Shown piece by piece: positions 551-20,376 of a stretch of 21,577 nt of DNA. Position 1 is the stretch's first letter; every line of letters starts with the position of its first letter. Under the pieces are notes generated by a model. The model saw only the letters and a list, made by a program, of their open reading frames with translations. It had not been told where the DNA came from and did no database searches. Source of the DNA: a virus (taxonomy: Duplodnaviria; Heunggongvirae; Uroviricota; Caudoviricetes); IMG/VR virus record IMGVR_UViG_3300044824_000100, positions 64,001-85,577 of that record, one strand, 5' to 3'. A program made the translations under genes and the position numbers.

Positions 551-551
551 C

Positions 552-2751: not shown

Positions 2752-5700
2752 TGGCGTCACAAATCCAAATCCAGAGCTTCAATCAGTTTCTTGGTGCCAT
2801 GATACGTAGTATTATTGCCAATACCCCTCTGAATGATGTTAATCAGGGGTCTGTGCTTTTAACAATTCTCGAAGCTGCTGCTGCAAATGATTACGAGAAC
2901 TCGGCTGCTATCCTTTCACTACTTAACCTATTAAACATAGCTACAGTTTCTGGTACTGACCTTGATAACAGGGCTGCTGACTATGGTTTGACTCGTTATC
3001 CGGCTACGAAGGCCTCTGGCAATGTAAGCATCTTCAATACAAGCATAACTCTTCAGAGTACAAGTCTGTACATCCTTAAGCCACCACCTATTGCCAGCCA
3101 AACTGTACTATATGTGAACAATACCACTGGGTGGGCAGCGTCCGGAACTCTGTACATAGGCAGAGGCACCATATCATTTGAAGGGCCTATTCCGTACAGC
3201 TCTATCGTTGCGTACCCAACGTATTCACAGATTAATCTTTCGTCTGCCCTAAACAACAACCATCTCATCTCAGATACTGTTGTAAACGCCCAGGGTCAAC
3301 CGGATCGCGTCATTGCGGCAGGAACGGTCGTTAGCATACCTGCGAACAATCAGAACCCTCAGATTGATTATAGCACTCTGAGAGACGCCATTCTACCAGC
3401 CGGCGAAACTGAGGTTGACAACATAGCTGCAACGGCCGCAGTAGCAGGCTCCATCGGCAATGCCCCTAACAACACTATCACTCAGTTTGCAACATCTCCT
3501 TTCCCAGGGGCCAAGGTGTCCAATACATCAGCTTTCACTGGCGGAACAGACGTGGAAACTGACCAGGAACTTAGGGACAGAATCAACTCTTACACTAACA
3601 CCCTAGCTAGAGGCACAGAGGCAGCAATATTGGCAGCCGTTATCAACGTGTCGGATTCGAGTGACAACAAGCAGGTCGCCTCTGCCGTTATCACCGAACC
3701 ACCAAGCCTTGGCCAGCCGTCTATCCTATACATCGATGACGGTACCGGCTTCCAGCCTTCGTATGCGGGTCAATCCGTAGACACACTACTCACTGATGCT
3801 ACCGGCAAGGAACAGTTCTTGCAGCTAGCTAACTTTCCAGTAACTAGACCCCAAGTTGTCAATGCTGGTATTGGACCATTCGACCTAGTGCCGGGTTCAT
3901 CTCTGAGCGTCTCTGTCGATGGTCAAGAAGAGACTATATTTTTTACTACAGCGGACTTCGTCAATATATCTTCGGCTCAAGTAGGCGAAATCGTCGTTGC
4001 AATAAACAGCCAAGCAACATTGTTCAGCGCCAGGTTAACAAACAATTCAGCTAACATACTAATCTATCCAGACGCGTGGGATGCGGAGATAATTCAGGTT
4101 GCTGCATTGCTACCTACGGCAGATGCGTCGCTGTATGCAAACTCGGTACTACAGTTTCCAACGTCTCAATTTTCGTTCATCGCACTGTACCAGAATACGA
4201 CAAGGCTCAGAGAGAAGACCATAAGTGCAGAGCTTCAAACAGCTCCTTTCGGATCATGGAACATCACTAGTCCTGGCGATCTCATAATCTCGGTAGACAA
4301 TACACCTCAGCAGGATAGAACATTCAACTTGAGCAACTTCCCTGGCGCATCAACGTTTGCGTCGTTAACGCTTGCTGATTGGGTCACTGCATTCAACCAG
4401 CAATTTGCCGGCATTACGGCTACGGCTACTCCGGATCAAACTATGCAGATCAACTCTAATCAGAGTGGATCTGCATCAGCACTAAGCATCTTAGGTGGCA
4501 CAATGCTTGCCCAGTTATTTCCTACCCAGGCCAAGACTGCCGTTGGTCAGACTGGCCAGTTCATATTGAACAGACAGACAGGAAATCTAGAGATACTTAC
4601 AACTATCAATCCTGGCGATAACATAACAGCTGGTTCCGCGGACACTAAGGGCTTCATCATCTCTACGTCTACGCCTAGCGGTAACTACAATGTATCGACC
4701 GATGCGTTTGGGCGCGCTGCCCAACTCATCATAGTTGCTGATTCAACATACTGCACACAGCGTGCATTGAATGCGCCTGTAGGTTCGACCCTGACAATAA
4801 GCAATCCAAGTGGCAACGTGATGAGAATCATGTCGAACTTGCTAACTGCTTTCCCAGCTGTACTACCTGGCGATTTCGTCTACATGACGCAAAGAACCAG
4901 CGGATGGTTAGCACCTAACAATGCAGGTCTATTTAAGATAGTCGACAAGGGTTCTCACACTACTCCAGGTGTAGATACATACATCGATGTACTAAACGCA
5001 GGAGACCTAGCAACTCCAAGTATCACTCCTCAGGTTGTCACCATCGCAGACACCCTTGATATACAGGCTTTTACGACCGACGGGTATCCTCAGATCTGGT
5101 TGGGTACCTTCCTTACGAATCCACCAGTTTCGTCTCTGTCGAGCGTAGTCAATTCTATAAATGACAACATCATCAACGTTATAGCATCTATATACGAGTC
5201 TAACTCTATTAAGTTAACATCAACAACAGAGAACAACGGTTCTATAGCTATCCCTGTCGTAATGGGTAGCAACGCGCTAGCATTGTTTGCATCTACTCCG
5301 CTAGCATTGTTTGGCAATCCACCGTTGACAGCATCTATCGTGTCTAGCAAGAGTTTGCTAACGCACTTCAAGATTGACCCAACTACTAACAAGAATACAT
5401 GGTTGAATAGACAAGTATTCGATGACTCTAAGGGAACTCTCACGGCTAATGCAATCCCTGATGTGCCTCCATACTCAGGACCTTACAGTGAAGTATTGGA
5501 ATGCACCGGTGAACTCAACACGACACATGTTGACTTCGATAGCATTATCTCGTTCACAGACGGGAACAACAAAGACCAACTGAGAAGCATCGCAGCTTTT
5601 AACCCAGTTGGATATCCTTCTGACACTGTCGGCACGCAGGAAGCATTAGCCAGGACGAGTCTCGACAACGTGATCGGCGACCAGTTTGAAATTCTCAGAC

Positions 5701-8700
5701 CTCTGCAGCTCTCTGCTACGGACTCGATCGCTATGGTGATCGACGAGAATCCTCAGAACAATACTATCAATATTCCTCTGGCAAGAACTGGTCAGGTAAA
5801 CTCAGGCTCTGATTCGTTGTCGTTTCCCCCAACATCCACCGAGTTTTCTGCTAATGACTATGACAACCAAGCTGGTATCGACTTCTCTAATCAGAACGTC
5901 TGGGGCACAGCCATCAATGGCACCAACTTTAGTGACTATGCTGCATGGTTCAGAGCTAGAAACTGGTATGCTTCCGGCGGCGTTGGCTCCGGCAAGGGCG
6001 TCATGATAATGAGAGCTGACGAGTACGGTCCAGATGGGGACTTCTTGCGCTTCAACATGCAGTATCCTTCTGCACCTAACCAAGCTGCTACGACATCGTT
6101 TGTCAACACACCGTCGTTCACCACCTTTTCATATATATTCGGTTCGGGAGCGGCAAGAGCTACAGCACTGTCGACCGGTAATACAATCACGGTGAAGGGT
6201 CCATACCCTAATGCGTCTACCAACTTCCCTGATGGAGCTGTTTCTAGCGGAAACTACTACGACTACACATTCAGTGCTGGTAGTTTAACGTCTGTACAGA
6301 TCGGTGACATCATAAGCATAACTTCTCCTTCTGGCGTATCTAACTCTAACAGCGGTACATACAGCGTGCAGAATATTAGCGGGAATACCGTACGTGTGCT
6401 CAATGCTACTGCCTCTGTAACGTCGCCAGGATCACCGGAAGTCGACACGATCACCACTGTTGCCGATATTTTGGGCACTCCTACATCGTACGCGCTAACT
6501 GCCGTAGCAGATGTAAGCGGTTCACTCAATGGAACATATTTCTTGATCTACAATACAGCAGGATCCGTAGCGGTGTGGATCAATGAGGGTGGAACTGCTG
6601 CACCACCTTCCATCGGAGCCAATTCCTACCTCATGGTGGGCACGATCCTGTCTGGTGATTCTGCATCCACTGTTGCCACTAAGATAGTTCAAGCCATAAA
6701 TCAGAGCAGTTCATTTACAGCAACTGTAAGTGGTCCTACGATGATGATTACCAACGTTCAGAACGGCGCTTTGCCTAGTGCCACCACCGGTACATCTGGC
6801 TTTTCGATGTCGACCCCTTCTGCCCTAGCAACTGCTTCTGGCTTTGCTGTATTGGGCGCATCAACAGTTACCAACACAGGCTCGAGCGTTCTTACTGGGA
6901 ACCTTGGTCTATATCCTGGAACATCTATTACCGGCTTCCCACCAGGGACGTATTCCGGAACCGAATACATAGCAAACTCTGTAGCACAGACGGCGCAAGC
7001 CGATGCTCTATCCGCATATAACACATTCAACGCAATGAGTGCAACTTCAATCTCTGCAACCCTTGATAGTCAGACTCTTACTCCTGGCGTATACACAGAA
7101 TCTAGCGGCACTTTCAACTTGGCGGCATCTGGTCCAGGCACATTAACATTGAATGGCTCCGGTACATATGTATTCATCTGCTCAAGCACACTAAATACAG
7201 GCGCTGGCGGCGCAGCAACTATAACCCTTACTGGCGGTGCATCAGCAGCCAACGTCTACTGGATTGTTCGTTCATCGGCTACTATCAATGTAACAACTGG
7301 CAGCGTATTCAACGGTAACGTCCTAGCACAAGCAAGCATCACAGTTGGCGGGAGCACGGTGAACGGCACTCTAGCAGCTCTGACTGCTGCAGTTACTATT
7401 AGCACTGCTGCCACCATCACGGCTGCATCAATATCTGGTGGTTCTGGCGTAGTTGGCACCAACAATGATTCGTTGAGCGGTAAGTATTTCATCGTTTACG
7501 ACAACGGTGGTCCAGTATCTATCTGGTTTGACGTTGGTAATCAAGGTACTCCAGAGCCATACGACGGGTCATACAGGTCCATCAGAGTATTCAACTTGAG
7601 TGCAGGAGCTAACGCAACAACCGTAGCTCTGGCCATAGTGCAAGCTGTCACCGGTGATATATCGTTCATACCAACGTCGACTAGCAACGTTGTCACTCTC
7701 ACTAATAATTTTAATGGAAATGTTCCCGCTGGAAATGCTGGAACATCTGGGTTTACGGTCACCTCAACTCCTGGATCGCTGGCTAACCCAGAAGTGATCA
7801 ACAACCCAAACGGCGTAAACATGTTCCCTCTAGTGGGAACTACGACGGCTAGCATCTCTACGACCATAAATAATAGCTCGGTCATGTCTGCTACACCAGT
7901 TGGATCAAGTTCTCTAACCATCTCCCTAGCTACACAGGAAGAAACTTCTGCTACGCTGGCGTACGGATTTACTCCTGGACATAACTACATCAGCATGTAC
8001 GATGGTGCAAACTGGATTAAGTCATTTGAGAACCCAAATCCTAACTTCATAACCAAGACGCCATTTGTACTACAAGGCGCACAGCCATCTGTCTATTCCA
8101 TGGATACGGCTCCCAACTTTGATGTTCCAACCAATGGAGAGTTATTCAAACTTATTCCAACTACAGTACAGAACTTATATCACCAGTTTACACAGCCAGC
8201 ACTCTCCCAGCTCCCTATCGTTGCAACGGTTGAAATCACCGATGACAGGAGAAATGTACAAATTAAGTCCATGCAACTTGGTTCTTCCGGTGCAGTAGAA
8301 GTCCTTGGCGGTACAGGCAATCAGATCCAGATGTACCTGCAATCTGAATCTGAAATTGAAACAGACTCTAGCGGAAGTTACCTAACGGTTCAGGTCCAGG
8401 CATTCCCAGATACATTTAGTGTGGGCGATACTGTATTACTTGAGAACTCTACTGGCGTAGCGAGATTGAATCGCTTGCAAGCTTCAGATACAATTACAAC
8501 CCTGAACATCAATCCGATCACGAATGCCATCGAGTATGCGTACAACGCCAAAGTTACAGGCATCGCTTCCGGAACATCGTTTACCATCGTTGACGTATCT
8601 TCAACGTACTCTATCCCCGCTGGTTTCGTATGGAGATGGATTGCAACAGGAATCGGAGTAACATTCGCTGACGTTAATCCTGGCGATCTCATTTATGCGT

Positions 8701-10481
8701 TTGGCACTTTATCCGGTTGGGCTCAACAAAACCAAGCTAAACCATCAGGCGATGGCGCTGTGTCTGGACTTCCTATCATCGCTGTCAATGTAGGTTCTAA
8801 CTACGTAGATGTAGTCAATCCATTTGGTACGGCCATGTCAGCTACCACTGTCGGTAGCGGCACGGTTCAGATATGCCCAACTCCAGTTATTCAGTGGACT
8901 CCAGCACACGCAGCCTATGTAGATGTTGCGACCCTAAGCAGCGTTTCAGATGTCGTGACAGTCAACACAGAAACTGCACACTTCTTGAATACCGGCGACA
9001 GTATCAGTTTCCGTGATAGCACTAATGTCCCAGATGGTGTTTACACCGTAACTGTCACAAGCGCAACACAGTTTACGTTCAGTTTTTCTGGCCCTAACTT
9101 TACCGAGACACCAACGTTCGCATCGTTGATACAGTCTACTCTCACGCAATCACGTTATAGGTTGCAATCCCTCAAGTTCAATAGTTTGATGAGACTTAAC
9201 AGACAAAACGGTCAGTCTCCAAGCTTTATCGATGTGGGCGTTGCCGTAGATGACTACATAGTTTTCAGCGGAACAACGTTCTCTTCGAACAACAACGGGC
9301 GCTTCAGAGTACTTGCTGTAGACAACGACTCCATCATATTCATCAATCCATCTGGTACAGACCAGATAAACACGATCAGGCCAATGAACAACATGGGCTT
9401 CGACGCTGTGTTCACTGCCAACGCAAGCTACATCACTGGTCCTGTCGGAACATTCAAGTATGTGCAGGTCGGCGATTGGGTAAAAGGTCAAGCAGATCCA
9501 GACTCCTATTACTTACAAGTGTTGAGCATCAACAATGCTAATCCTGCACTTGCAACCCAAATCAACCTGGGTGGTAATTATGCTGGTGCAACAGGATCTG
9601 CAATAGGTGTTGTATACAGAGAAACAATAGATTATGACCAAGGCGTATTCCTAGAGAATGCTGGCGATATCGCCATCTATGAAGGCGATGCAGTATGTCA
9701 AAACGATACGCTATACGTGCAAGATCTTGTTGAGCCAGGATGGTTTAACGTTAACAACGTGGGCAGCTTCAATATCGTTCAATACGGTACAGAAGCTAAC
9801 TACTTGCCATTCGTAAGAGTAATCAACGCCGCTGGTGTTACGGCCAACACAGCTGACATATCTGTAAGCCCAGATGGCTTCTACATCATAGAAGGTCTCG
9901 CTAACAAGTTCTACACCATAAGGGAAGTAGTATACTCAGTATTGGACTCTACGAATAGCAATCTAAGGAATATCTACATCACTCCTTGGAGCAGAAGTTA
10001 TAAGTTTACTCCTGCTAATGCCTCCAGCATCACGCACTTGGGCAAAATCGGCTACAGTAATAATGTCGTTATTGGTATCGATGGATATACATACTATACG
10101 GGCTTGCTACAAAAGGTGCAACGCATCGTAGACGGCTTCGAGCCAGATGCTACTGATTATCCAGGGCAACGTGCAGTTGGAAGTGCTATCGAGACGCTAC
10201 CTCCTCTACCGTTTCAGGTTAACCTAGCACTTACAGTAATTACTAACGCTGGCGTGAACCTGGGAGATGTGTCTAATAACATCAAGTCAACTATCATTAA
10301 CTATGTAGAGGGTCTAAGCGTCGGTGCACCTATCGTGCTTTCGCAGATCATCGCTGACATTCAGCCAATCACTGGTGTCGCATCTGTAGTATTCACTAAC
10401 CCAGTACCAAGCACACAGAGCATTACACTGGCAAACAACGAGAAGGCTATCATCTCGGCTGACAATATTTCAATAGCGTAA
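2751..10481 (+). CDS. Giant baseplate J-like (T4 gp6 / P2 gpJ / XkdT family) wedge protein with a ~2100-aa multi-domain insertion including a DUF3494 ice-binding domain (2576 aa)
   Basis: J-like N-terminus ([59 protein letters not shown]). J-like C-terminus ([14 protein letters not shown]...[26 protein letters not shown]..ITGV). The ATG overlaps the HNH stop (TAATG). Confidence 0.9.
   Translation: [2576 protein letters not shown]
6522..7769 (+). repeat. Two ~100-aa homologous modules (6522-6815 and 7470-7769) flanking DUF3494 copy 1
   Basis: [16 protein letters not shown]...TVATKIVQA...ITN..NG..P....GTSGFSMST versus [16 protein letters not shown]...TVALAIVQA...LTN..NG..P....[10 protein letters not shown]. 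Confidence 0.75.
6825..7424 (+). other. DUF3494 ice-binding-like domain, copy 1 (aa ~1359-1558 of baseplate J)
   Basis: Canonical motifs: [35 protein letters not shown]; helix [65 protein letters not shown]. Confidence 0.9.
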
Positions 10482-10484
10482 CGT

Positions 10485-12983
10485 ATGGCAAACAACATTA
10501 CCAAGATTGATCAGATTCACAACATAATGCCAGCGCATTTCAACACCAGGACCAATCCTAACTGGAATGCGTTGATCACGGCCATTGGTCAATCAGATCA
10601 AAACCTGGCTAACCTGATAGTCGCTATAAAAAATCAATTTTTTATCAAGACCGCTAGCGCTCCTTACTTAGATAACCTGGCAGCCAATGATGGGGTTTCT
10701 AGACCTGCAGGCACGGGTATGAGCGATACGACGTTTAAGCAGTTTATCCCAGTGATGGCATATCAACCAAAGCAGGTTAAGTTGATCATAGATCAACTGC
10801 TCAATATATTCTTTTCTAAAGAAACCACCACAGCTTTTATAGAGTCTGGTAAGGCACAACCGTACATTCTTGAGGATGGGTGGGAGTTAGAGTACACGGT
10901 AGATGGCATCTACGATGAGCTTATTACTTTTCACACGGCCGATTTCACAAATATTGGTGCCGCACTGGCTGAAGAGATAGCGGCTACCATAAATAGACAA
11001 GCAGAACACAGTGCTGCAGAGAGCTATTACGACAACACCAATAAACTTTACTATGTAAAGATATTCACGAACACCGTGGGTTCAAAAGGATCAATTCAAT
11101 TGGTCGGTGGACGTGCAAACATAGCTTTGCAGTTCAACGGCTTCATAACTACGGCCGGAACAGCTACGAACACCGAATGGACAGTGACTAAAGTCGGGGA
11201 AAAGGTCACATTTCAGTATGTCGGAGGAAACTCTCCTGGGCTGAATCAGCTTCAGGTCGGTAACGTGTTTATATCGCTAATCCCGGATAATATAGGGTCG
11301 TTTCCTATCACCAGTATTGATTTAAGTAACAACAGTTTCACATTTGATAACCTATTTGCTACTCCTGGGACATATACACAGACTGATTCTACGCAAAGCA
11401 AGTTTTTCGTAGCCGACAAGTACGTGGTTTACACCCAGGATGTACGCGCCGTAACGTGGGAAGTTACACCAGGTGAAGTCATCGTCGAAATCCCAGCTAC
11501 TCCCCCTGTTGTCAAAAGATCGCTCATTGGCGCTGCCCACATAAACGGTGCCGAGAGTCTAGTCACTGCAACTAACAGTCTTACGTCAATTACTGTATCA
11601 GATGCGTCGCAGTTTCCGCTATCCGGGACGTTCTGGCTCCAAAAGGAAGAAGAAATAATCACAAGATATCTCACTCCTACTCAGGATACCATCTCTACAA
11701 ACACCTTTAACACGAGGTTTCAGGGAAGACCTATTGAATACACGTATGCAAGTAGGATCGTGTTGGAAACCATAGGCAACACGGTAACTGGTAGCACTAT
11801 TGTTTCTAATCTTGGATCAACAGCTGGCCTAGTGGTAGGTCAGAATGTGTTTATGACAGGTGTACCGTCATATGCACTTATCACCGAGATTCTAGGAGAC
11901 ACAGTTACGCTAGATTACCCGGCCACGGCAGATGGTACGGCCGTGATCGTACAATTTGGCGGCAATACGCTCAACGGCATCACGCCAAATTTGCCAGCAT
12001 TGGCCACACTCAACACTAATACGCTTACATCGTTAGTTAGATCGGGTGACGTAGTAACTGCTACAACTACAACTCCACATGGTTATCAGGTAGGTGACGT
12101 AGTTACCGTATATGGCTCAAGCGGTATAGTGAGCACAACTGCCACAGGCACAATAAGCACTGGATCGTCAGATATCACCGGCGTCTCTCCTGTTGGTACT
12201 ACGTCGCCAGGGGAATTAGTAGTTGGAACATACATTCCACAAGGTACTCTAGTCAAAGATGTAGTTGGAACTACAGTTACTATGACCCAGGTTGCTACCA
12301 ATAATGCTACTGAAACTATAAACTTTAATGAGAACTTAAACGGTGCATTCGTTATAACCTCAGTGACTGGGAACACGTTTACTTATGACTCCATCGGACT
12401 AGATGGCACTGCAACAGTAGCAGGAACCTCTGAGTTTGATGTCATTGGTATGGCACCGACAGGTTCGTTAGTGTTGATCACCGGCGCCCAACCAGTTAGT
12501 TTCACCAGGATACCTGGTCCTTATGTTTGGGATCTCACTGCGCCATTTGTGTTATCTGACAACGTCGCACTGCTGACGGAGAGCATACAGGCTGGCCAGA
12601 CGATACCGCTTCTAACCTTAAGTGAGAACACGATCCCATCTACTAGTGGTTTTGTAGTATTTGACTACGGCTTGAATACACAAGAGGGTCCTGTCAAGTA
12701 CCTATATACGCCTAACAGCACAACCATCGTTATAGACCCATCTTACACGTTTCAATACAGCCATGCTATCGGCTCCAGTGTTATCTCGATCGACAACAAA
12801 GGTCCCCATATAATGAGTGGCCTTGGAACTGAGTATCCACCGTATATCACCAATCCGTCAGCAGTCAGAGTTACTCTTGAGCAACTCATAGAGTCAGTGG
12901 CCAGCGCTGGCATATTCATAGACTTCTTGGTACGCTATCCAGACCAACTTTATAGCGTTTTACCAACATATACAGTAACATGA
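10485..12983 (+). CDS. Baseplate wedge gpI-like (P2 gpI / Mu gp48 / T4 gp7-type) protein with inserted beta modules (832 aa)
   Basis: gpI-like N-terminus (FFIKTASAPYLDNLAANDGVSRP....SDTTFKQFI). gpI-like C-terminus (LEQLIESVASAGIFIDFLVRYP). Directly follows J after a 3-nt spacer. Confidence 0.75.
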   Translation: MANNITKIDQIHNIMPAHFNTRTNPNWNALITAIGQSDQNLANLIVAIKNQFFIKTASAPYLDNLAANDGVSRPAGTGMSDTTFKQFIPVMAYQPKQVKLIIDQLLNIFFSKETTTAFIESGKAQPYILEDGWELEYTVDGIYDELITFHTADFTNIGAALAEEIAATINRQAEHSAAESYYDNTNKLYYVKIFTNTVGSKGSIQLVGGRANIALQFNGFITTAGTATNTEWTVTKVGEKVTFQYVGGNSPGLNQLQVGNVFISLIPDNIGSFPITSIDLSNNSFTFDNLFATPGTYTQTDSTQSKFFVADKYVVYTQDVRAVTWEVTPGEVIVEIPATPPVVKRSLIGAAHINGAESLVTATNSLTSITVSDASQFPLSGTFWLQKEEEIITRYLTPTQDTISTNTFNTRFQGRPIEYTYASRIVLETIGNTVTGSTIVSNLGSTAGLVVGQNVFMTGVPSYALITEILGDTVTLDYPATADGTAVIVQFGGNTLNGITPNLPALATLNTNTLTSLVRSGDVVTATTTTPHGYQVGDVVTVYGSSGIVSTTATGTISTGSSDITGVSPVGTTSPGELVVGTYIPQGTLVKDVVGTTVTMTQVATNNATETINFNENLNGAFVITSVTGNTFTYDSIGLDGTATVAGTSEFDVIGMAPTGSLVLITGAQPVSFTRIPGPYVWDLTAPFVLSDNVALLTESIQAGQTIPLLTLSENTIPSTSGFVVFDYGLNTQEGPVKYLYTPNSTTIVIDPSYTFQYSHAIGSSVISIDNKGPHIMSGLGTEYPPYITNPSAVRVTLEQLIESVASAGIFIDFLVRYPDQLYSVLPTYTVT

Positions 12984-13002
12984 GAGGCTAACTTAGGATA
13001 AG

Positions 13003-13015
13003 GTAGAATAGAGTT
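13003..13015 (+). promoter_or_regulatory. Putative -10 element GTAGAATAGAGTT directly upstream of the ATG at 13016
   Basis: TAGAAT (13004-13009) + 6 nt + ATG, the same geometry as at 2158-2170. Confidence 0.45.
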
Positions 13016-16000
13016 ATGGCCGTACTTGGAAGACTACTAATTAGCTCTGCAGAGCGACTCGATCTCCCAGATCTGCTCAGCATAGATAGCTATTCTGCGG
13101 GCGACTGGAAGTACTTCATGGATACCCTTGTAGGCGAGGACACTCCCTACATCATCAAGGGCTTTGACGTAATCAATCCAGGGCTAGCTATTGGTACTCA
13201 AAACATCTCGATTAACATTGCCGACTCAGCTATGTACTATCCAGGCTCTGGGGCAGGTTCATTCTTTTATGGCCTACCAGCTGGTAGCCCAAGTGCACAA
13301 CCACTTGTCCCATCGCTCGTACTAAACGCGACAAACTATGTTTATCTAACATTTACCACTGCTGCTACAGCAGAGGACACTAGAGCATTCTGGGATCCAG
13401 ACGCTAACGGCGGACAGGGTGACGAGTTCACTCAGGAAGTGAACACTGAATCCGTAATCCAGGTTCAGGTGAATGTTTCAACAGGTTCATTCCCAGATAA
13501 TACAGTTCCAGTGGCCATCGTAGTTGTGGGCCCAACATCCATCTCTAGCATCGAAGATGCAAGACCGATGATGTTCAGACTAGGAACTGGTGGCATCGAT
13601 CCTAATCCTTCGAACAGATTCGCATGGCCAGCAATTCCTAGCACCATGTACGAGCAGATGGAGACTCCAATCACCATCACCTCGTTCTCGCAACCAAACC
13701 CTTTTCAGGGTGGCGACAAGAATATAACATCACTAAAGCAGTGGATGGATGCGGTTATGTCGCAGCTGGCAAATATTGCCGGCACGCAGTATTGGTATGA
13801 AGACAACGCTACCTTTAGCTTGGTGAGCTTGTTCAATGATTTGAACATCACCTTCTACTCTAAAGGAAAGTACGAACACAGTTCATCCGTCCCAGGCGAA
13901 CTCACTTTAACCGAAAACCTAGTTGTTAAGAGTGCTAATTCTCCACAGGACATAATCATTCAACCTGGCACTATAATAATCCCAGATGAATATGTCGCAT
14001 ATATTACGCTCAACAGCGCTCAACCAGTAAACTCTCTCAACCAACCAGTTCTCTGGACAAACGGCTCGCTGTATCTAAATACTCCTAATGGCTCTATCGG
14101 ATATTTCTCAGAGTTAAGCGTTGGCGACTGGGTTACTGCAGCAGGCGATCCTGGTAATTACGCTCTACAAGTAGAGCAGTTCTATAGCGGTACGAACGGT
14201 AGCGGATCTGTCACGACTGCTGCAAATGCTAAATCTGTCCTATTAGGCGGTACGTACCAAGGGTTAACCGGCAGTAAACTTGGTGCCTTCAATCAGGGCA
14301 TCTATGCAATCAGCGACATACAGATTCAACCTAGATCTAGCCCAGCAATCGCTGCGGCTGGTGGAAATTTCCTATGGTTGGTGCTACGCAGTGATACCAT
14401 CGAAGGAATCGGAGATATCCACGCTGTTACCGTATCTGGCACTCTCACTGTAACTGACGGCAGTGCCGCATCTCCAACTGGCACAGTTGCAGAAGTTATA
14501 GCGATGGGCCATGGCATGATCGATGGAGATCGTATCACTGTCACCGCTCCATTCGGACAGGTAGGAACGTACACAGTAGAAGTAATCGATGCTAACACGT
14601 TCTTCTTTAATACGACTAGTACCTCAACCGGCGCATTCACGGGTTTCTACGGGTTATGCACAACCGTAGCGCTAGGTAACGAATCAGCGAATAACGGATT
14701 TGAATCCGGCGAAACTGTTAACATCGCTGGAACCACAAACTATAACGGCGAGTACGTAATTAATTACAGATCCCCAACGCAGTTTGAGTTTCCATTTGGT
14801 TCTATTCCTACTCCACCGCCAGGAAGTCCAAATCTAGCAACCGCGGCAGAGTATGCTGTTCTAGCTGGTTCAGCTATTACAAATACTGGTTCAACAGTTA
14901 TCACTGGAAACCTTGGTTTATATCCTGGAACATCTGTGACTGGTTTTCCACCTGGCACGGTATCGGGAACGCAGGATATAGCTGAAGCAGCAGCTCAACA
15001 GGCTGAAGTGGACGCTACCAACGCCTACAATGCGATGCAGGCCTTGACTCCAACTATTATTCCTACAGAACTCGGTGGTCAAACATTGGCGCCTGGAATA
15101 TATGCAGCTTCGTCTGGCACATTTACACTGAATGGGACTTTGACGCTTTCTGGTACTTCTTCAAGTGTATATGTATTTCAAACAGCAAGCACGCTTATCA
15201 CCGGTGCATCTTCCACTCCAGTCGTAGCTCTTGGCAGTGTGTTACCAGCTAACATCTACTGGGCAGTCGGAAGTTCAGCCACTATTAACTCCGGTCACGC
15301 CGGCACGTTTCCTGGTAATATCGTTGCCCAAGCAAGCATCACGGATACCCTGGGCGGCACAGTAAACGGCAGATTAATTGCCTTGACGGGTGCGGTAACA
15401 TTCAGTGCTGCTGCTACATTAAACGCTCCATCGGTTGGCCCAACGCCTCCACCAACAGTTTTAGGACCTGCAGGAACGTTCGCTATATTAGCTGCTTCTG
15501 CAGTAACCAACAGCGGTTCAAGTGTGTTAACGGGAAATCTAGGCATCAGCCCAGGTACTTCTATTACCGGCTTCCCACCAGGAACATATACTGGAACAGA
15601 AGATATTGCTAACACCGCTTCGGCAGTAGCGCAAGCGGCAGCCTCTAGCGCGTATACGACGTTGTCAGGCATGACGTCGACAGCTATCCCATCCATCCTC
15701 GATGGTCAAACCCTTACTCCCGGCGTCTACCGTGAAGCCAGTGGAACCTTTAATCTAGCTGCTTCCGGAAACGGAACCTTGACGCTGAACGGCGCAGGAC
15801 AGTACGTGTTCATCTGCTCAAGCACCTTAACAACGGGCGCTGGCGGTATTCCTACTATTGCACTAACTAACGGTGCTCTAGCTGGTAACATCTACTGGGT
15901 TGTAGGTTCTTCTGCTACCATTAATTCTGGTAACGCTGGAACATTCCAAGGTAACATCATCGCGCAGGCTAGCATCACGGATACGTCTGGCGGTACTGTC

Positions 16001-17920
16001 AACGGAAGCATGATAGCTCTCAACGGTGCTGTAACCCTGAGTGCTGCTGCCAACGTAAATGCGGTAGCTGCAGTGAGTCCTCCGGTCCCACCCGAAAGTG
16101 CTGGTACGGCAACTCTTGCACGCCTCGATGTACGCTCAGAAGAAGGTATCACCAAAGTAGTTCAAGGTGAGACGATCGACATCGGCGAAGGTGATTCTGA
16201 CAACATTCAGAGATTCATCGGCATGAGTTCGCTAGCAGAGACCTATCCGATCTACTTTACTGGGCCATATAATACACTGTGGAATCTAGCTAACTACAAC
16301 GGCAACATCACAGACAACTTAACGCTTCGTACCAGTAAGCTCACTGCCATGATGGCAGATAAGGCGCAAGACAAGACTATTAAGTACTTGACTACTGCTA
16401 GCACAGCAGTAAACACTGCTAATGGATTGTCACAACAGATTACATTTTTGCCTTCAGCTAGTACGTTGACCATATTGCAACCCGGATCCCCAGGAAACGC
16501 AGTAATATCATTGCCAAACGTTTCCCCAGGTATTTCTCTGCTCGCTAACCAATCAGCTTATGTAGTTATAAACAGAAACGCAGCAAGTACACCAAGTATT
16601 GTTGTGGTAAATACAGCAGATGTGCCAATCGACGAGAATGTCATAGTTATCGCAAGTAGACTTGGTGATAACAGCATATGGTTATGGAATGGCGAGAATG
16701 TAATTGGTGCAGCGCCATTACAACCAACTAGTGGTGGATTGGTTAAAGTTAAATATTTTGATCCTATTAGTACATCGTTGCCCACGGGGTCTGTAATCGA
16801 AGACGGAGATACAGTTGTCGCAGGTGACACAGTACTTTTTGCCGCTCTTACCTCTGGAACCAATAACGCCGTCTATATGGCTAATGGAACTGGGAGTACC
16901 ATAGCCGGATGGACTCTACAAAATGCATTTAATGGAAACGCTTCGCCATCAAGCGCAGACACAGTCATCATTCAAGAAGGTAACTCATTCCAAGATCAGA
17001 TCGGCAAGTGGAACGATACTGCATGGGTATTCAATGATAAGGTTAGATATTTTAATATTGATACTGCCACGGGCGTATATAGTTACTTCGAACAGGATGC
17101 TATAGCAGTAAGCACATTAACGGATAACACTGCTAACGGCACAGTAACTAGCTTTAATTATCCTGGCAGTGAATTCATGATTGTTGATTTCTCTGTAAAC
17201 AGAGGATCAGCTAGGGACACGGGTACGATATGGGTTACCACGGATGGAATATCTACTGTAGAAGTTGCAACCGGTGGAGCATACATAAATAACAGCGGTG
17301 TGTCATTTAGCGGAAGCATATCTGGTGGCGTATTCAGTCTTCTATACACAACCACGTCTACTGGCAGTGATGCAACAATGAAGTTTATGATACGCAGATG
17401 GTCTAATACGAACGGCGGGCCTGGTGGCGTTCCTAGTTATAGCGGTGCAAGTAGTTCTGTTGTTGCGGCCGGACCAAACGAAGCGATACAATTTAACAAC
17501 GGCGGTTTAATCGACGGCGTAGCTAGTTTCTTAATAGATACAACGAATAGTTATCTAGGTACTGTTGGTGCTATAGTGCTTAACGGCTTAAGTCAAGGCA
17601 TATTATCCTCAGGAATAACATTAACAGATAACACTTCCACGCCTACTGCTATTTTTTCATACCCAGCAGCATCTTCTCCATTTGCTGTCGTAGAGTATTC
17701 CATTGCAAGAGGTGGTGATTCTAGTACGGGGAGACTCATGATCGCTAACAATGGCTCAGTTAGTTCAGAGAGCGATGACTTTGTTGAAACAGATCAATTC
17801 GCTCCAATAGGAGTCACATTTAGTACCGCTATAGTTGGATCCGACGTCGTAGTGTATTACATGACCAGCAGTACAGGCTTCAATGCCATATTTAAGTACT
17901 CTGGTAGGTCTTGGAGTTAA
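13016..17920 (+). CDS. Baseplate-attached fibre/appendage protein with tandem DUF3494 ice-binding domains (1634 aa)
   Basis: Occupies the gpH (fibre) position after J and I. T/S/G/A-rich beta modules. Two complete DUF3494 domains bounded by Pro-rich linkers. Two ~100-aa C-terminal repeats. Confidence 0.75.
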   Translation: MAVLGRLLISSAERLDLPDLLSIDSYSAGDWKYFMDTLVGEDTPYIIKGFDVINPGLAIGTQNISINIADSAMYYPGSGAGSFFYGLPAGSPSAQPLVPSLVLNATNYVYLTFTTAATAEDTRAFWDPDANGGQGDEFTQEVNTESVIQVQVNVSTGSFPDNTVPVAIVVVGPTSISSIEDARPMMFRLGTGGIDPNPSNRFAWPAIPSTMYEQMETPITITSFSQPNPFQGGDKNITSLKQWMDAVMSQLANIAGTQYWYEDNATFSLVSLFNDLNITFYSKGKYEHSSSVPGELTLTENLVVKSANSPQDIIIQPGTIIIPDEYVAYITLNSAQPVNSLNQPVLWTNGSLYLNTPNGSIGYFSELSVGDWVTAAGDPGNYALQVEQFYSGTNGSGSVTTAANAKSVLLGGTYQGLTGSKLGAFNQGIYAISDIQIQPRSSPAIAAAGGNFLWLVLRSDTIEGIGDIHAVTVSGTLTVTDGSAASPTGTVAEVIAMGHGMIDGDRITVTAPFGQVGTYTVEVIDANTFFFNTTSTSTGAFTGFYGLCTTVALGNESANNGFESGETVNIAGTTNYNGEYVINYRSPTQFEFPFGSIPTPPPGSPNLATAAEYAVLAGSAITNTGSTVITGNLGLYPGTSVTGFPPGTVSGTQDIAEAAAQQAEVDATNAYNAMQALTPTIIPTELGGQTLAPGIYAASSGTFTLNGTLTLSGTSSSVYVFQTASTLITGASSTPVVALGSVLPANIYWAVGSSATINSGHAGTFPGNIVAQASITDTLGGTVNGRLIALTGAVTFSAAATLNAPSVGPTPPPTVLGPAGTFAILAASAVTNSGSSVLTGNLGISPGTSITGFPPGTYTGTEDIANTASAVAQAAASSAYTTLSGMTSTAIPSILDGQTLTPGVYREASGTFNLAASGNGTLTLNGAGQYVFICSSTLTTGAGGIPTIALTNGALAGNIYWVVGSSATINSGNAGTFQGNIIAQASITDTSGGTVNGSMIALNGAVTLSAAANVNAVAAVSPPVPPESAGTATLARLDVRSEEGITKVVQGETIDIGEGDSDNIQRFIGMSSLAETYPIYFTGPYNTLWNLANYNGNITDNLTLRTSKLTAMMADKAQDKTIKYLTTASTAVNTANGLSQQITFLPSASTLTILQPGSPGNAVISLPNVSPGISLLANQSAYVVINRNAASTPSIVVVNTADVPIDENVIVIASRLGDNSIWLWNGENVIGAAPLQPTSGGLVKVKYFDPISTSLPTGSVIEDGDTVVAGDTVLFAALTSGTNNAVYMANGTGSTIAGWTLQNAFNGNASPSSADTVIIQEGNSFQDQIGKWNDTAWVFNDKVRYFNIDTATGVYSYFEQDAIAVSTLTDNTANGTVTSFNYPGSEFMIVDFSVNRGSARDTGTIWVTTDGISTVEVATGGAYINNSGVSFSGSISGGVFSLLYTTTSTGSDATMKFMIRRWSNTNGGPGGVPSYSGASSSVVAAGPNEAIQFNNGGLIDGVASFLIDTTNSYLGTVGAIVLNGLSQGILSSGITLTDNTSTPTAIFSYPAASSPFAVVEYSIARGGDSSTGRLMIANNGSVSSESDDFVETDQFAPIGVTFSTAIVGSDVVVYYMTSSTGFNAIFKYSGRSWS
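14834..15427 (+). other. DUF3494 ice-binding-like domain, copy 2 (aa ~607-804)
   Basis: YAVLAGSAITNTGSTVITGNLGLYPGTSVTGFPPG; AAQQAEVDATNAYN; ELGGQTLAPGIY; VYVFQTASTL; NIYWAVGSSATI; TVNGRLIALTGAVT. Confidence 0.92.
15461..16063 (+). other. DUF3494 ice-binding-like domain, copy 3 (aa ~816-1016)
   Basis: FAILAASAVTNSGSSVLTGNLGISPGTSITGFPPG; AVAQAAASSAY; LDGQTLTPGVY; NIYWVVGSSATI; FQGNIIAQASIT; TVNGSMIALNGAVTL. Confidence 0.92.
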
Positions 17921-17955: not shown

Positions 17956-20376
17956 ATGGCCGTAAATGCACTAAATTTTGGTAGTAAGGTCGTATTCTTA
18001 AATGGATTCGCTGTTACGTTGCCTATTGCTGCCTCTAATCCAGCTTCAGCAGTGGCCGGTGACTTTTATTACAACTCAACATCTAACACTATTTACTACT
18101 ATAATGGCAGTGCTTGGGTTCAACTAGCAACTGGCGGAACTGCTTTAACGAGTGTTTCTGTTGCTTCTGCGAACGGTTTAGCTGGTACATCTTCTGGTGG
18201 TACGACTCCCACTCTAACACTTTCAACGACGATCACTGGTATACTACAAGGCAACGGAACGGCAATCAGTGCAGCTACGACTACCGGCACTGGCAGCGTC
18301 GTACTTGCAACTAGTCCAACTCTAATTACTCCTGCATTAGGGACTCCTAGTGCATTAGTAGGAACAAATATAACTGGTACTGCTTCTGGCCTTACAGCAG
18401 GAACAGTGACTACTAATGCTAACCTGACAGGTGATGTGACGTCAGTTGGTAATGCCACAACTTTAGCTACCGTCAATTCTAACGTTGGCAGTTTCGGCAG
18501 CAGTACGTCTATCCCAAGCCTTACTGTCAATGCGAAAGGTTTAATCACCGCAGTATCTAGCAACGTAGTGATTGCCCCAGCTGGCACGTTATCGGGTACA
18601 GTATTAAATTCTAGCGTTGTAACTTCTTCTTTAACTTCTTTGGGTATTCAGGCTCAGGCCCTAAACATGGGTAGCAACCAGATCAATAATCTGGCAACTC
18701 CGTCCGTTTCAAGTGATGCTGCAACCAAGGGATATGTGGACTCTTTAGTTAGTGGCCTAACTTGGCAGGGTCCCGCTAAAGCTTACGCTGACTCCAACAT
18801 ACCTCTTACTGGTGGCGCGACACTAACAATCGATGGATACTCTGTTCAAAACGGTGACCTTGTTATCCTTGGAAACCAAACTATTGCCTCTCAAAATGGT
18901 GAGTATACCGCTAGCGGAATCGGTACGGCATACACACTAACGCCAAACGGACTTCCTTCCGCAGCAGGTGATGCTTGGTTGATCCTTGACGGTGCAGTAT
19001 ACGGAGATAGCGCCTTCGTAGCTAACGCCGCCGTTCCAGCAGCTACGTTCACAGAATTTGCTGGTCCAACCGCTTACACATTCAATGCTCCGCTATCTTT
19101 ATCAGGACGTTCGATAAGTATTACTGAAGCTACTACTTCAACCAATGGTTATCTGAGTTCAACGGATTGGAACACCTTTAACAATAAGCAACCAGCTGGT
19201 AGCTACATCACTGCTCTAACCGGCGATGCCACTGCTTCTGGTCCAGGTTCTGCAGTTCTGACTCTGGCCACTGTCAATTCTAATGTAGGATCATTTGGTT
19301 CGTCTACAGCAATACCATCATTCACAGTTAATGCAAAGGGTTTAATCACCGCTGCATCAACCAGCGTTGTTACTGCTCCAGCAGGAACTCTAACTGGAAC
19401 TACACTCGCTGCAAATGTTGTCAGCTCATCGTTGACGTCTGTTGGAACCATTACAAGCGGTACATGGACAGGAACAACTATTGCCATAGCAAATGGCGGC
19501 ACTGGACAGACAAGTGCATCGGCAGCATTCAATGCTCTCTCGCCAATCACAACCACTGGCGACATGATATATAGTACAAGTGGCGCCACTAACTCACGTC
19601 TACCTATTGGGTCTACAAATCAAGTTTTAACTGTTATTGCTGGTGTTCCCACGTGGGCATCTCCTGCAACCTCAGGAACTGTAACATCGGTGAGTGTTGT
19701 TTCTGCTAATGGATTCAATGGTTCTGTAGCAACTGCTACGTCAACGCCAGCTATTACGATCTCTACCACCGTTAACAGTCCGGTGCTTGCTGGCAACGGA
19801 ACGGCAATCAGTGCAGCTACGACTACCGGCACTGGCAGCACGGTTGTTCTTAACGCATCTCCCACACTTACCGGCACGCTCACTGCAGCAGCTGCTAATT
19901 TTTCTGGGGTAATTGGTGCTAACGGCGGCATTACATCTACTGGGACATTGCTAATAAACGTAAACGGCGGAGCAAGCGCATTACAAATTGAAGCCTTAAA
20001 TTTCCAAAGATCAACCAATGGTACTAACTTTGTTACCGAAACTTATGTTGACTCTACAACATTAATAGATAACTCTGGTCCTACTGCTGTCGCCGCCTTT
20101 CAATTTGCTGTTTCAGTGTTCTCTGGAATTGAGATCACATATGTCATTGAATCTGCTGACGGTGCCGCCGATAGGCGTGTTGGAACCATCCGCGTAACAG
20201 CTAACAGTATCGGAACCATTACTCCTTCTATCTCTGATATGTACACTGAATCTGCAGATTGCGGAGTTACATGGAGTGCTACTAACTCTGGTGGAACTAT
20301 TTCAGTCAACTACACAACTTCCAATCAAGGTGCTGCTAGGACTATGAGGGCTGATGCTAAGTTTTTTAGAGCATAA
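17956..20376 (+). CDS. Tail-fibre-like protein with internal repeats (806 aa)
   Basis: Good SD. Very T/S/G/A-rich. Fibre motifs GDFYYNSTSNTIYYYNGSAW, DAATKGYVD, TVNAKGLITA (x2) and IAIANGGTG. C-terminal ~100-aa domain shared with the previous gene. Confidence 0.8.
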   Translation: MAVNALNFGSKVVFLNGFAVTLPIAASNPASAVAGDFYYNSTSNTIYYYNGSAWVQLATGGTALTSVSVASANGLAGTSSGGTTPTLTLSTTITGILQGNGTAISAATTTGTGSVVLATSPTLITPALGTPSALVGTNITGTASGLTAGTVTTNANLTGDVTSVGNATTLATVNSNVGSFGSSTSIPSLTVNAKGLITAVSSNVVIAPAGTLSGTVLNSSVVTSSLTSLGIQAQALNMGSNQINNLATPSVSSDAATKGYVDSLVSGLTWQGPAKAYADSNIPLTGGATLTIDGYSVQNGDLVILGNQTIASQNGEYTASGIGTAYTLTPNGLPSAAGDAWLILDGAVYGDSAFVANAAVPAATFTEFAGPTAYTFNAPLSLSGRSISITEATTSTNGYLSSTDWNTFNNKQPAGSYITALTGDATASGPGSAVLTLATVNSNVGSFGSSTAIPSFTVNAKGLITAASTSVVTAPAGTLTGTTLAANVVSSSLTSVGTITSGTWTGTTIAIANGGTGQTSASAAFNALSPITTTGDMIYSTSGATNSRLPIGSTNQVLTVIAGVPTWASPATSGTVTSVSVVSANGFNGSVATATSTPAITISTTVNSPVLAGNGTAISAATTTGTGSTVVLNASPTLTGTLTAAAANFSGVIGANGGITSTGTLLINVNGGASALQIEALNFQRSTNGTNFVTETYVDSTTLIDNSGPTAVAAFQFAVSVFSGIEITYVIESADGAADRRVGTIRVTANSIGTITPSISDMYTESADCGVTWSATNSGGTISVNYTTSNQGAARTMRADAKFFRA
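18250..19839 (+). repeat. Perfect 48-bp direct repeat (18250-18297 and 19792-19839) encoding GNGTAISAATTTGTGS
   Basis: GGCAACGGAACGGCAATCAGTGCAGCTACGACTACCGGCACTGGCAGC is identical at both sites, in frame, 1542 bp apart. Confidence 0.95.
18424..19446 (+). repeat. Diverged ~75-aa repeat (18424-18645 and 19216-19446)
   Basis: LTGD...TLATVNSNVGSFGSST.IPS.TVNAKGLITA.S..V..APAGTL.GT.L...VV.SSLTS.G occurs twice. Synonymous positions are largely different. Confidence 0.9.

Follow-up and report, generated by a model that had tools for sequence, protein, structure and literature searches.

What would a domain of an ice-binding family be doing in the tail of a phage? Members of the DUF3494 family (PF11999) have been described both as ice-binding and as substrate-binding or adhesive proteins, and they are found in non-icy settings, including rock and subsurface metagenomes (PMC12337378). 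An earlier note on the DNA considered here, made from the sequence alone, had recognized three such domains within structural genes, one in a baseplate J protein and two in a nearby appendage protein, and had proposed that they form a multivalent ice-binding surface. The window (the whole stretch of DNA analysed, 21,577 nucleotides) is the terminal part of IMG/VR record IMGVR_UViG_3300044824_000100, an 85.6 kb fragment that is ~50% complete.

Genomic context

The window belongs to a large, uncultured contractile-tailed phage of peat. Non-structural genes on the contig comprise RNR, DNA ligase, NAMPT/PRPP synthetase, NAD-salvage genes, and many small early genes, and the relatives have genomes of 150-177 kb, of which some carry direct terminal repeats and reach 100% completeness in CheckV. 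The RNR, DNA ligase, and NAD-salvage genes, together with these terminal-repeat relatives, remove the contractile injection system that the earlier note had entertained in place of a virion; an extracellular injection system or T6SS, that is, a cellular tail module devoid of phage functions, was ruled out by the virus record and the phage replication genes. Both DUF3494 carriers in the window sit within the tail/baseplate gene block. The features of the window are the following:

2..550, +, 3' part of a tail-tube-initiator-like/virion structural gene (PF23980 Phage_tail_tube_init, 7e-5, under the cut-off; phrog_1011, 3.6e-10)
525..2150, +, 541-aa baseplate protein (phrog_975, 4e-14; kept 5' of J in relatives)
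2170..2751, +, 193-aa endonuclease VII/HNH-like gene before J, non-virion (phrog_1035, 5.4e-14)
2751..10481, +, baseplate J, 2576 aa, a gp47/gp6-type wedge/triplex protein (PF04865, phrog_6, and PDB matches)
3279..3614, +, N-terminal part of the J core fold (PF04865 stretch, aa 177-288)
6822..7454, +, J DUF3494 cassette, aa 1358-1568 (PF11999, envelope 6849-7409; 6eio; gap in the sister J)
10101..10352, +, C-terminal part of the J core fold (PF04865 positions 178-253, 6.3e-5; PF26079 Baseplate_J_C in relatives)
10485..12983, +, 832-aa baseplate protein without DUF3494 (phrog_1160, 9e-4, weak; an 832-aa gene after J is kept in relatives)
13016..17920, +, 1634-aa fibre-like baseplate appendage (gene order 3' of J, homology to J, sister orthologues)
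14792..16093, +, tandem DUF3494 cassette of the fibre, aa 593-1026 (sister fibres lack it as a single block; AlphaFold2)
14858..15409, +, fibre DUF3494 copy 1 (PF11999, 2.4e-44; 6eio, 4.4e-36)
15485..16048, +, fibre DUF3494 copy 2 (PF11999, 6.6e-40 in the genome scan and 2.3e-38 for the copy alone)
17956..20376, +, 806-aa fibre/decoration-like protein without DUF3494 (phrog_2647 'head decoration', 3.8e-22, aa 217-356)
20419..21576, +, C1q-domain protein, its 3' end lost at the contig end (PF00386 C1q, 2.3e-6)

Carrier proteins in the window

The product of 2751-10481 is a genuine baseplate J protein, flanked by tube-initiator-like and baseplate neighbours. It matches PF04865 (68.5 bits, E 7e-19) in two stretches, profile positions 26-132 corresponding to aa 177-288 and positions 178-253 to aa 2451-2534; the fold is interrupted by an insertion of ~2100 aa that holds a single PF11999 domain (aa 1367-1553, E 3.4e-34, 118.8 bits; window 6849-7409). 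The J assignment is also carried by phrog_6 (E 8.6e-34) and by PDB matches to 9g8s_C ('Baseplate J / triplex 1a', 1e-8), 8v3w_E (TRI-2, 1.7e-6), and 9euf_C, while the cassette itself matches 6eio at 1.7e-28. The 832-aa protein that follows is, from its position, a candidate J partner (gpI/gp7/triplex-2 position).

Next but one after J lies the fibre-like protein, which bears two PF11999 domains, at aa 615-798 and aa 824-1009 (whole-protein E 3.2e-77, 259.3 bits); taken as single-domain cassettes, the two span aa 604-803 and aa 813-1015. Outside the cassette, it matches nothing in PHROG, Pfam, or PDB, and a phmmer search of residues 1-600 and 1010-1634 against the PDB likewise returned no match. 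Residues 526-1554 are, however, homologous to J residues 1113-2105 (BLAST, 1e-81). As BLAST was run without composition correction, giving many weak matches among Thr/Ser/Gly-rich proteins, only this J-fibre match was kept. Pro-rich linkers precede, separate, and follow the two domains, and AlphaFold2 (AF2) predicts two complete, confident solenoids with a low-confidence linker between them.

The span given to the baseplate array in the earlier note, 6825-16063, fits the PF11999 matches at 6849-7409, 14858-15409, and 15485-16048, and profile matches in both carriers bear out its count of one domain in J and two in the appendage. The profile check that it had called for placed all copies above the curated cut-off of 28.7 bits. 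A scan of the whole genome yielded four copies, at 147, 133, 126, and 95 bits, the fourth lying outside the window.

The subfamily is that of PF11999 (1e-38) rather than the adhesive-type PF20597 (0.011), and the best PDB relatives (6eio, 4.4e-36; 7bwx, 2e-27; and 5uyt) are all proven ice-binding proteins. Structural models agree: AF2 shows the coil strands and an 18-residue helix in each copy, and in Foldseek the DUF3494 insert matches 6eio, 7bwx, 9lhn, and 6bg8 at rmsd 1.9-2.7 A.

The carriers, as the earlier note had stated, begin with J-type or other structural N-termini and have no signal peptide. Extracellular exposure would thus come about through virion release. This gene structure bears directly on the published reading of viral PF11999/antifreeze genes in polar oceans, namely that they are auxiliary ('AMG') genes for host cryoprotection (PMC11515562, PMC8407431). 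Each copy here lies in frame within a sheath, J, or fibre ORF, with neither a signal peptide nor a gene of its own; the AMG reading is contradicted by this arrangement and was rejected as extremely unlikely.

A fourth copy in the tail sheath

The remaining PF11999 copy (100.4 bits) was found 13 kb upstream of the window, in the gene for the tail sheath. The carrier is a contractile tail sheath by both core fold and gene order: it matches phrog_279 (4.5e-28), and its AF2 model (pLDDT 84.5) retrieves phage 812 in Foldseek (1e-18, TM by target up to 0.71), as well as Lin1278, P1, T4, and Mu. The DUF3494 domain is circularly permuted and placed in the variable N-terminal region, its cassette spanning aa 160-374. 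Superposition of the insert gives 2.2 A and 38% identity with 6eio and 1.9 A with 7bwx; a weak CBM-like match (PF14683, 0.011) adjoins the cassette. The sheath cassette is conserved across many phages (the ~935-963 aa class).

This copy changes the arithmetic of display. The earlier note had allowed for about 12 domains per particle from J and up to 36 from a trimeric appendage; the former number agrees with the homology of J to solved triplex baseplates, but the sheath copy makes the overall estimate far too low. Each sheath ring would contribute six further domains, and the fibre copies would add to these. If a tape-measure-like ORF of 925 aa, downstream of the sheath and upstream of the window, is indeed the tape measure (it is a lead only), the sheath copies would number ~200 per tail. 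The proposal of multivalent display thus stands as regards true DUF3494 domains in virion structural proteins, given the PF11999 matches and the identities of J and sheath, whereas incorporation and surface exposure are points that we only infer.

Optional cassettes among related phages

All four copies are clean, optional, in-frame cassettes that are absent from the sheath, J, and fibre of sister phages, whose proteins are shorter by ~201, 211, and ~430 aa, respectively. In one sister genome (G001), the sheath has 742 aa and 77% identity and is without a clean block of ~201 aa, and the J protein (2374 aa) shows one 211-aa gap at the cassette with conserved flanks. Sister fibre orthologues of 1197-1205 aa (1197 in G001) match aa 2-594 and 1023-1634, the cassette being missing as a single block. 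The cassettes are evidently dispensable for assembly, as these sister phages possess none of them.

Among related genomes, the DUF3494 trait is all-or-none. PF11999 was detected in none of the 15 whose J lacks the domain (11 of which are at least 90% complete), while positive records have 3-5 matches over 2-3 ORFs, and single contigs exist in which sheath, J, and fibre are all positive. The wider families comprise 183 related J loci, ~620 sheath proteins, and at least 165 viral DUF3494 loci. That the cassettes are kept or lost together suggests a trait of the particle as a whole, not of any single protein. On a sheath-core tree, at least six gains or losses of the cassette in the sheath are needed, and DUF3494 on tails arose convergently in an unrelated myovirus lineage, in which a 116.7 kb contig carries PF11999 in a 783-aa, Pfam-verified sheath and in a fibre-like protein. 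For a further set of carriers in relatives, of 441-468 aa, no PHROG or Pfam partner domain was found.

This distribution also bears on whether the J and fibre copies are specific host-receptor-binding domains, domain shuffling having left the sheath copy as a by-product. Receptor-binding modules do usually sit in baseplate and fibre proteins, the homology of J 1113-2105 to fibre 526-1554 speaks of module exchange between the two, and the DUF segment diverges rapidly in close relatives. The sheath-borne copy, however, cannot plausibly act as a specific receptor tip, and a cassette that is kept in so many phages and has arisen independently in an unrelated sheath is no shuffling by-product. Moreover, fibre variability in close relatives peaks at the C-terminus (57-64%), outside the less variable cassette; the C1q protein at 20419-21576, a candidate host-receptor-binding head, is the better candidate for such a tip; and the putative binding face stays invariant even where the core proteins of the phages have diverged by more than 60%. 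We therefore consider the receptor reading very unlikely.

Among 50,697 deposited phage genomes, tblastn with three different DUF3494 domains as queries found no match, although its low-complexity filter may hide weak ones; the result shows rarity among cultured phages only. When close cellular relatives were sought in the GTDB species genomes, only Pontibacter came up, at 32-35% identity, and hence neither a donor nor a host.

The phage was found in peat metagenomes of two studies, and a relative in peat and permafrost. The habitat evidence covers these two members, and peat is a heavily sampled environment; runs X3 and X7, with only short pieces below 90% identity, and small-share rows (lake water, soil) were left out of the habitat evidence. 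A literature search on SRR7151494 and SRR7151495, the runs that contain relative P0015, found nothing. Reads from four runs gave no contig skipping a cassette, so no cassette-free variants were seen there; two apparent X7 joints (6953>15887 and 7082>15896) were rejected as deletions, since they reflect a related DUF3494 copy that matches first the J and then the fibre copy. At the level of data sets, IMG 3300030044 holds both a cassette-positive phage (L009) and a cassette-free one (L030), indicating that the domain is unnecessary for persistence there.

Ice or another surface

The anatomy of a DUF3494-decorated tail is, in our judgement, very probably correct: a phage of a ~165-177 kb clade in which self-contained cassettes are spliced into loops of virion proteins. 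As to what the cassettes do, the likeliest mechanism is a weak, multivalent adhesion of the tail, through the B-face of each solenoid, to an invariant environmental surface, for which ice is the best-supported ligand. Virions would then be held at ice-water interfaces or in unfrozen films of seasonally frozen peat, and/or suffer less recrystallization damage.

The B-face segments have been defined in AnpIBP, where S153 and T156 are essential for activity (PMC7277481). Mapped onto these segments through sequence alignment, that is, by homology and without use of coordinates, the phage B-face reads as a Ser/Thr ladder with S, T, A, G, or N at outward positions, near-invariant among 46 phage copies; the SSAT strand, which includes the S153 and T156 equivalents, is conserved in all 46. 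The sheath copy shows the same motifs. As read from the alignment, the flat face would bear small, uncharged, regularly spaced residues, and variation among the phage copies is concentrated in the helix and loops. Ligands are nonetheless not discriminated by this conservation, as the Ser/Thr face may be a family-wide, partly structural feature: it is conserved in 11 cellular copies recovered alongside as well, and so are other solenoid strands.

Could the solenoids instead be structural decorations that bind no ligand, bracing the tail through, say, lateral contacts between sheath subunits or shielding it in peat against acidity, desiccation, or proteases? The beta-solenoid is a rigid and stable fold, there are many decoration domains on phages for which no ligand is known, and the insert is tolerated at loop positions in sheath, J, and fibre; the all-or-none pattern would also suit a particle-stability trait. 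This explanation seems unlikely, however, for it leaves the conserved solvent-facing Ser/Thr residues on one face unexplained, the fibre copies sit on flexible Pro-rich linkers and are unable to brace anything, and assembly in sister phages proceeds without solenoids.

The main and serious rival to ice is a non-ice surface ligand, the cassettes being general adhesion modules for peat or biofilm polysaccharide, host capsule or EPS, or humic or mineral surfaces. By the logic of Ig-like decoration domains (T4 Hoc-type 'adherence to mucus'), weak multivalent sticking of the whole tail would raise host encounter. The adhesive roles and the rock and subsurface occurrences noted at the outset favour this rival, as does the CBM-like match beside the sheath cassette. 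So does the repeated gain and loss, with cassette-free sisters in the same data set, as with niche- or host-linked adhesins. Furthermore, no other part of J has diverged as much in close relatives as the DUF3494 segment (58-78% versus 73-97%), which resembles the behaviour of diversifying binding modules and would count against an ice ligand. On the other side, the outward B-face is near-invariant over the 46 copies, three carriers, and deeply diverged lineages, and, as variation spares the flat face and falls in helix and loops, an invariant ligand fits better than varied glycans; in addition, the domains belong to PF11999 rather than PF20597, and all solved relatives bind ice. We consider a non-ice ligand somewhat less likely than ice.

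For ice as the selected ligand, judged from sequence conservation and homology, the case is plausible, and we would put it just short of an even chance. The fuller reading is more tentative: virions would be ice-adhesive particles whose few hundred ice-binding domains dock on ice or inhibit local recrystallization in freezing peat, the trait being modular, exchanged among phages, convergent in unrelated myoviruses, and switched on or off as a set. What benefit ice adhesion might bring to a virion is speculative.

Implications

Should ice binding be true, the phage would provide the first case of adaptation to freezing at the level of the virion and the first virus particle adapted to bind ice, as well as a natural high-valency ice-binding nanoparticle, and it would hint at how soil and permafrost phages remain positioned or intact during freeze-thaw cycles. 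A rigid tube with ~200 ice-binding domains would be a multivalent scaffold of cryopreservation interest. Should the ligand be another, the cassettes would represent a class of adhesion module that is widespread on phage tails but had gone unremarked, and a clear example of DUF3494 serving another surface. A natural control is built in, as sister phages differ essentially by the presence of the cassette in three genes. For viromics, 'ice-binding AMG' calls may often be virion parts.

The earlier note knew of no description of this architecture, and in the literature we too found no published account of DUF3494 in virion tail proteins; viral PF11999 is reported there as host-cryoprotection genes only.

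Comparison with known systems

The closest known domains are the single-domain EfcIBP (6EIO) and AnpIBP (7BWX). They share the Pfam family with the phage copies and also the fold, in which a long helix flanks a triangular beta-solenoid. They are the best sequence relatives (E 4e-36 and 2e-27), the sheath insert superposes on them at 1.9-2.2 A, and their B-face strands can be aligned with those of the phage copies, in which S153 and T156, needed for activity in AnpIBP, are conserved. Unlike these free, secreted cellular proteins of ~220-250 aa, the phage domain is spliced into virion loops and has no signal peptide, and in the sheath it is also circularly permuted.

Bacterial ice adhesins and anchored ice-binding proteins, such as SfIBP_1 (6BG8), IBPv (5UYT), and MpIBP, offer the same general design of an ice-binding module on a large extracellular scaffold that keeps its carrier at the ice, and the tandem DUF3494 of IBPv resembles the fibre cassette. 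MpIBP, an RTX ice adhesin (PMC5550230), differs in fold from DUF3494. In the bacterial adhesins, the carrier is a cell, whereas here it is a phage tail with a predicted valency of hundreds per particle.

With regard to the tail, phage 812/A511-type (Herelleviridae-like) particles and their triplex baseplates (8q1i, 9euf/9eui, 9g8s) are related in the sheath core and the J N-domain, and Pfam hints for the tube and its initiator lead to this group as well. Their logic of two J proteins per wedge leads to the ~12 J copies expected here. The present J, with its ~2100-aa insertion, is ~7 times longer, and the sheath has an extra solenoid. To the best of our knowledge, no solved tail contains a DUF3494 domain.

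A functional parallel is provided by the Hoc Ig-like domains of T4 and by Ig-like, BACON, and CBM decorations on tails, which are dispensable, surface-exposed, high-copy, and gained or lost, and are thought to confer weak environmental adhesion. The DUF3494 cassettes differ from Hoc-type decorations in fold family and in being present simultaneously on sheath, baseplate, and fibre. Finally, PF11999 genes on cold-habitat viral contigs of the Central Arctic surface microlayer virome were described as 'ice-binding-like AMGs' and, without structural context, read as host cryoprotection (PMC11515562); in the peat phage, the same domain is part of virion proteins.

DUF3494 domains in the baseplate and fibre

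The earlier note had placed three DUF3494 (Pfam PF11999; Ice_binding) domains within two structural proteins, and a Pfam profile search bore this out:

Window 2751-10481 (+): 2576-aa baseplate J, one match (aa 1367-1553, 3.4e-34)
Window 13016-17920 (+): 1634-aa fibre-like baseplate appendage (the fibre), two matches (aa 615-798 and aa 824-1009)

The identity of the first carrier likewise held, through PF04865, phrog_6 and PDB matches, the latter to phiCD508 'Baseplate J/triplex 1a' and to diffocin TRI-2. The J fold is split, with PF04865 profile positions 26-132 at aa 177-288 and positions 178-253 at aa 2451-2534; thus, approximately 2100 aa are inserted within it, the DUF3494 domain lying mid-insertion. 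Homology of J residues 1113-2105 to fibre residues 526-1554 (1e-81) indicates that J carries a whole fibre-like module. Both fibre domains sit in one block, bounded and separated by Pro-rich linkers, and AlphaFold2 modeling of this cassette yielded two complete, confident solenoids joined by a linker at low confidence. A fibre subtype in relatives (proteins P0016, P0019, P0020, P0021, P0024, and P0027) carries a canonical DUF3494 followed by an apparent circularly permuted second copy, which runs from about position 87 to 200 of the HMM and continues with 2-80/139.

The tail sheath carries a fourth copy

Scanning the whole contig with PF11999 gave five matches, namely the three known copies and two adjacent stretches in one 943-aa ORF (L003 denotes a stretch of the same contig):

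Contig 50381-53212 (L003:10381-13209): 943-aa tail sheath, 13 kb upstream of the window (phrog_279, 4.5e-28)
L003:10858-11502 (aa 160-374): sheath DUF3494 cassette of ~210 aa, not in sister sheaths (739-756 aa)

The sheath domain (Pfam PF11999, 1.4e-28) matches profile positions 26-204, then 2-73; it is circularly permuted, with the helix and coils 2-6 first and coil 1 last. An AlphaFold2 model of the sheath (56-row alignment, mean pLDDT 84.5) matches the phage 812 sheath (1e-18; TM by target up to 0.71), as well as Lin1278, P1, T4, and Mu, and the insert within it superposes at 2.2 A on EfcIBP 6EIO, with 38% identity, and at 1.9 A on AnpIBP 7BWX. In T4 gp18-type sheath proteins, variable domains nest outward from a conserved C-terminal core; by this analogy, the insert at aa 160-374 most likely lies on the outer tail surface. 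The sheath copy, outside the region covered by the earlier note, is the largest contributor to DUF3494 valency. A CBM-like match to the domain adjoining the cassette (aa 418-492) is weak and falls below the cut-off (PF14683, E 0.011).

Source phage and habitat

The virus record is a single 85,577-bp contig without a terminal repeat (CheckV estimate ~50% complete); the window forms its final 21.6 kb. The contig is organized in two arms:

Minus-strand arm: small early genes, along with those for NAMPT, PRPP synthetase, DNA ligase, and ribonucleotide reductase
Plus-strand virion arm: tail sheath, tape-measure-like ORF, and baseplate genes

Relatives have genomes of 150-177 kb; several are rated as 100% complete, and direct terminal repeats occur in some. 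Together with the nucleotide-metabolism genes and the virion arm, these genomes identify the source as a large contractile-tailed phage, so that the contractile injection system once offered as an alternative can be set aside. A C1q-domain protein (window 20419-21576; PF00386, 2.3e-6), truncated at the contig end, is plausibly a host-receptor-binding head distinct from the DUF3494 carriers.

DNA identical to this phage is present in peat metagenomes from two studies. One peat run (X1) is probably the source; in another (X2), the identical short pieces include the fibre's DUF3494 region. A distant relative (L015) reaches a share of at least 0.2 in several peat studies and one permafrost study.

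Presence, absence, and turnover of the cassettes

A complete sister genome of 176.8 kb (G001) lacks all cassettes. Its sheath has 742 aa (77% identical), its J 2374 aa, and its fibre 1197 aa, each missing a single clean block relative to this phage (sheath aa 160-374, J aa 1358-1568, fibre aa 593-1026) between conserved flanks. Sheath sizes across the family are bimodal, at about 732-743 aa when PF11999 is absent and about 935-963 aa when it is present. Judged by these alignments, the DUF3494 domains are optional cassettes. Of 80 IMG/VR loci that encode a related giant J (taken from 183 found; J-core identity 36-87%), only 4 carry the domain within J; the giant split J therefore characterises the clade, and the cassette is an add-on.

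No PF11999 match was found in 15 related J-negative genomes (11 of them at least 90% complete) by the same search that finds five in the window's contig. Five J-positive records hold 3-5 matches each, over two or three ORFs, with sheath-, J-, and fibre-sized ones among them, and positive sheath, J, and fibre proteins are linked on common contigs of 172,777, 109,366, 53,764, 49,366, and 177,560 bp. In a maximum-likelihood phylogeny of the sheath core (56 rows, cassette columns removed), cassette presence requires at least six changes versus 18.3 with shuffled labels, in a sample whose proportions are not representative because positives were picked deliberately; the trait is thus clustered yet repeatedly gained or lost.

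Among close relatives, no part of J has diverged as far as the DUF3494 segment (58-78% versus 73-97%). Across J lineages that share only 25-36% identity, this segment is better conserved than any other part (52-65%), lies at other positions, and sometimes occurs in two copies. Such behaviour fits a module that circulates between phages. Within this genome, the four copies are 59-67% identical to each other, share no exact nucleotide match longer than 23 nt, and are old paralogues maintained separately.

An endonuclease VII/HNH-like gene (window 2170-2751) directly precedes J, its stop adjoining the J start codon, and relatives have I-HmuI-like or GIY-YIG genes beside J; homing endonucleases near these genes might promote module exchange. 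In a permafrost run (X7), contigs of a diverged relative join window 6953/7082 to 15887/15896. These align to the J copy, then to the second fibre copy, and are consistent with mosaic DUF3494 copies rather than deletion. IMG data set 3300030044 contains two positive loci (L009, L137) and a cassette-free one (L030), all of the same phage clade, and thus offers a natural paired comparison.

Other phage lineages

A diverse DUF3494 alignment recovered at least 165 DUF3494 stretches from IMG/VR contigs, a pattern-limited lower bound; among 74 loci, about 32 fall in this clade, and other carriers account for about 42. Deposited phage genomes gave no DUF3494 match. One unrelated IMG/VR contig of 116.7 kb (loci L150:7785-10133 and L181:6894-10592) encodes three carriers:

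783-aa sheath (Phage_sheath_1C and Phage_sheath_1 by Pfam; phrog_2839): canonical, non-permuted PF11999 at aa 84-263
1233-aa tail-fibre-like protein: PF11999
677-aa protein: PF11999

Placement on sheath and fibre has therefore arisen convergently in a second myovirus lineage. A recurrent 441-468-aa carrier in positive relatives (L106:1420-2742 (-); also L125, L128, L129, L140, and L141) combines a C-terminal DUF3494 with an N-terminal part matching no known family. In one genome (G006), it adjoins an endonuclease VII/HNH-like gene; it could be another virion protein.

Conserved face and candidate ligands

The solved structural relatives of the phage domains are all ice-binding proteins. In AnpIBP, S153Y and T156Y reduce activity to 17% (PMC7277481). 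When the AnpIBP face positions were carried onto the phage domains through the HMMER alignment, the equivalents of S153 and T156 proved conserved in 46/46 phage copies. Outward positions hold S/T/A/G/N, Thr forms a nearly unbroken column, and the face motifs recur in the permuted sheath copy. Variable columns cluster in the helix and loops (mean column entropy 0.67 vs 1.16, p = 2e-4), and the phage domains match PF11999 at 1e-38 versus 0.011 for the adhesive-type PF20597. Because the mapping is by homology only, the 11 cellular copies in the alignment conserve the same face residues, and the other solenoid strands are conserved too, the face is compatible with ice binding rather than diagnostic of it.

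Ice is tentatively ranked first as ligand because it is the sole invariant ligand known for the DUF3494 family and the habitat freezes. A non-ice surface (polysaccharide, EPS, or organic matter) ranks second, as a possible if rather doubtful candidate, since substrate-binding DUF3494 proteins are recognised (PMC12337378) and at least one data set contains both positives and cassette-free sisters. The copy on the sheath wall speaks against a specific host-receptor role, for which better candidates are the variable C-terminus of the fibre and the C1q-head protein encoded downstream.

Proposed mechanism and copy number

Complete solenoids occupy loop positions in three virion proteins, are dispensable, co-vary as a set, and conserve one face. 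From this we infer a surface property of the whole particle, in which multivalent adhesion would be mediated by the B-face, the flat solenoid face homologous to the proven ice-binding face of AnpIBP. J occurs twice per wedge in solved homologous baseplates ('triplex 1a/1b') and would, by analogy, contribute ~12 copies per particle, the sheath would contribute 6 per ring, and the fibre would add two per chain. T4 and lambda tails have ~1.5 A per tape-measure residue and ~40 A per ring; if a 925-aa ORF (atlas score 0.91, a lead only) is the tape measure, there would be ~35 rings and hence ~200 sheath copies.

Relation to known systems

Viral PF11999 or antifreeze genes have been read as presumed host-cryoprotection AMGs (PMC11515562, PMC8407431). 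Full-text literature searches, with most subscription journals beyond their reach, found viral PF11999 in this guise only and no ice-binding domains in virions, nor any mention of them in peat and permafrost virome papers; within that scope, the earlier note's impression of an undescribed architecture stands. The phage DUF3494 cassettes belong among the dispensable decoration and adhesion modules of phage tails; what would be new here is that such modules are made of the DUF3494 fold and occur on sheath, baseplate, and fibre together.
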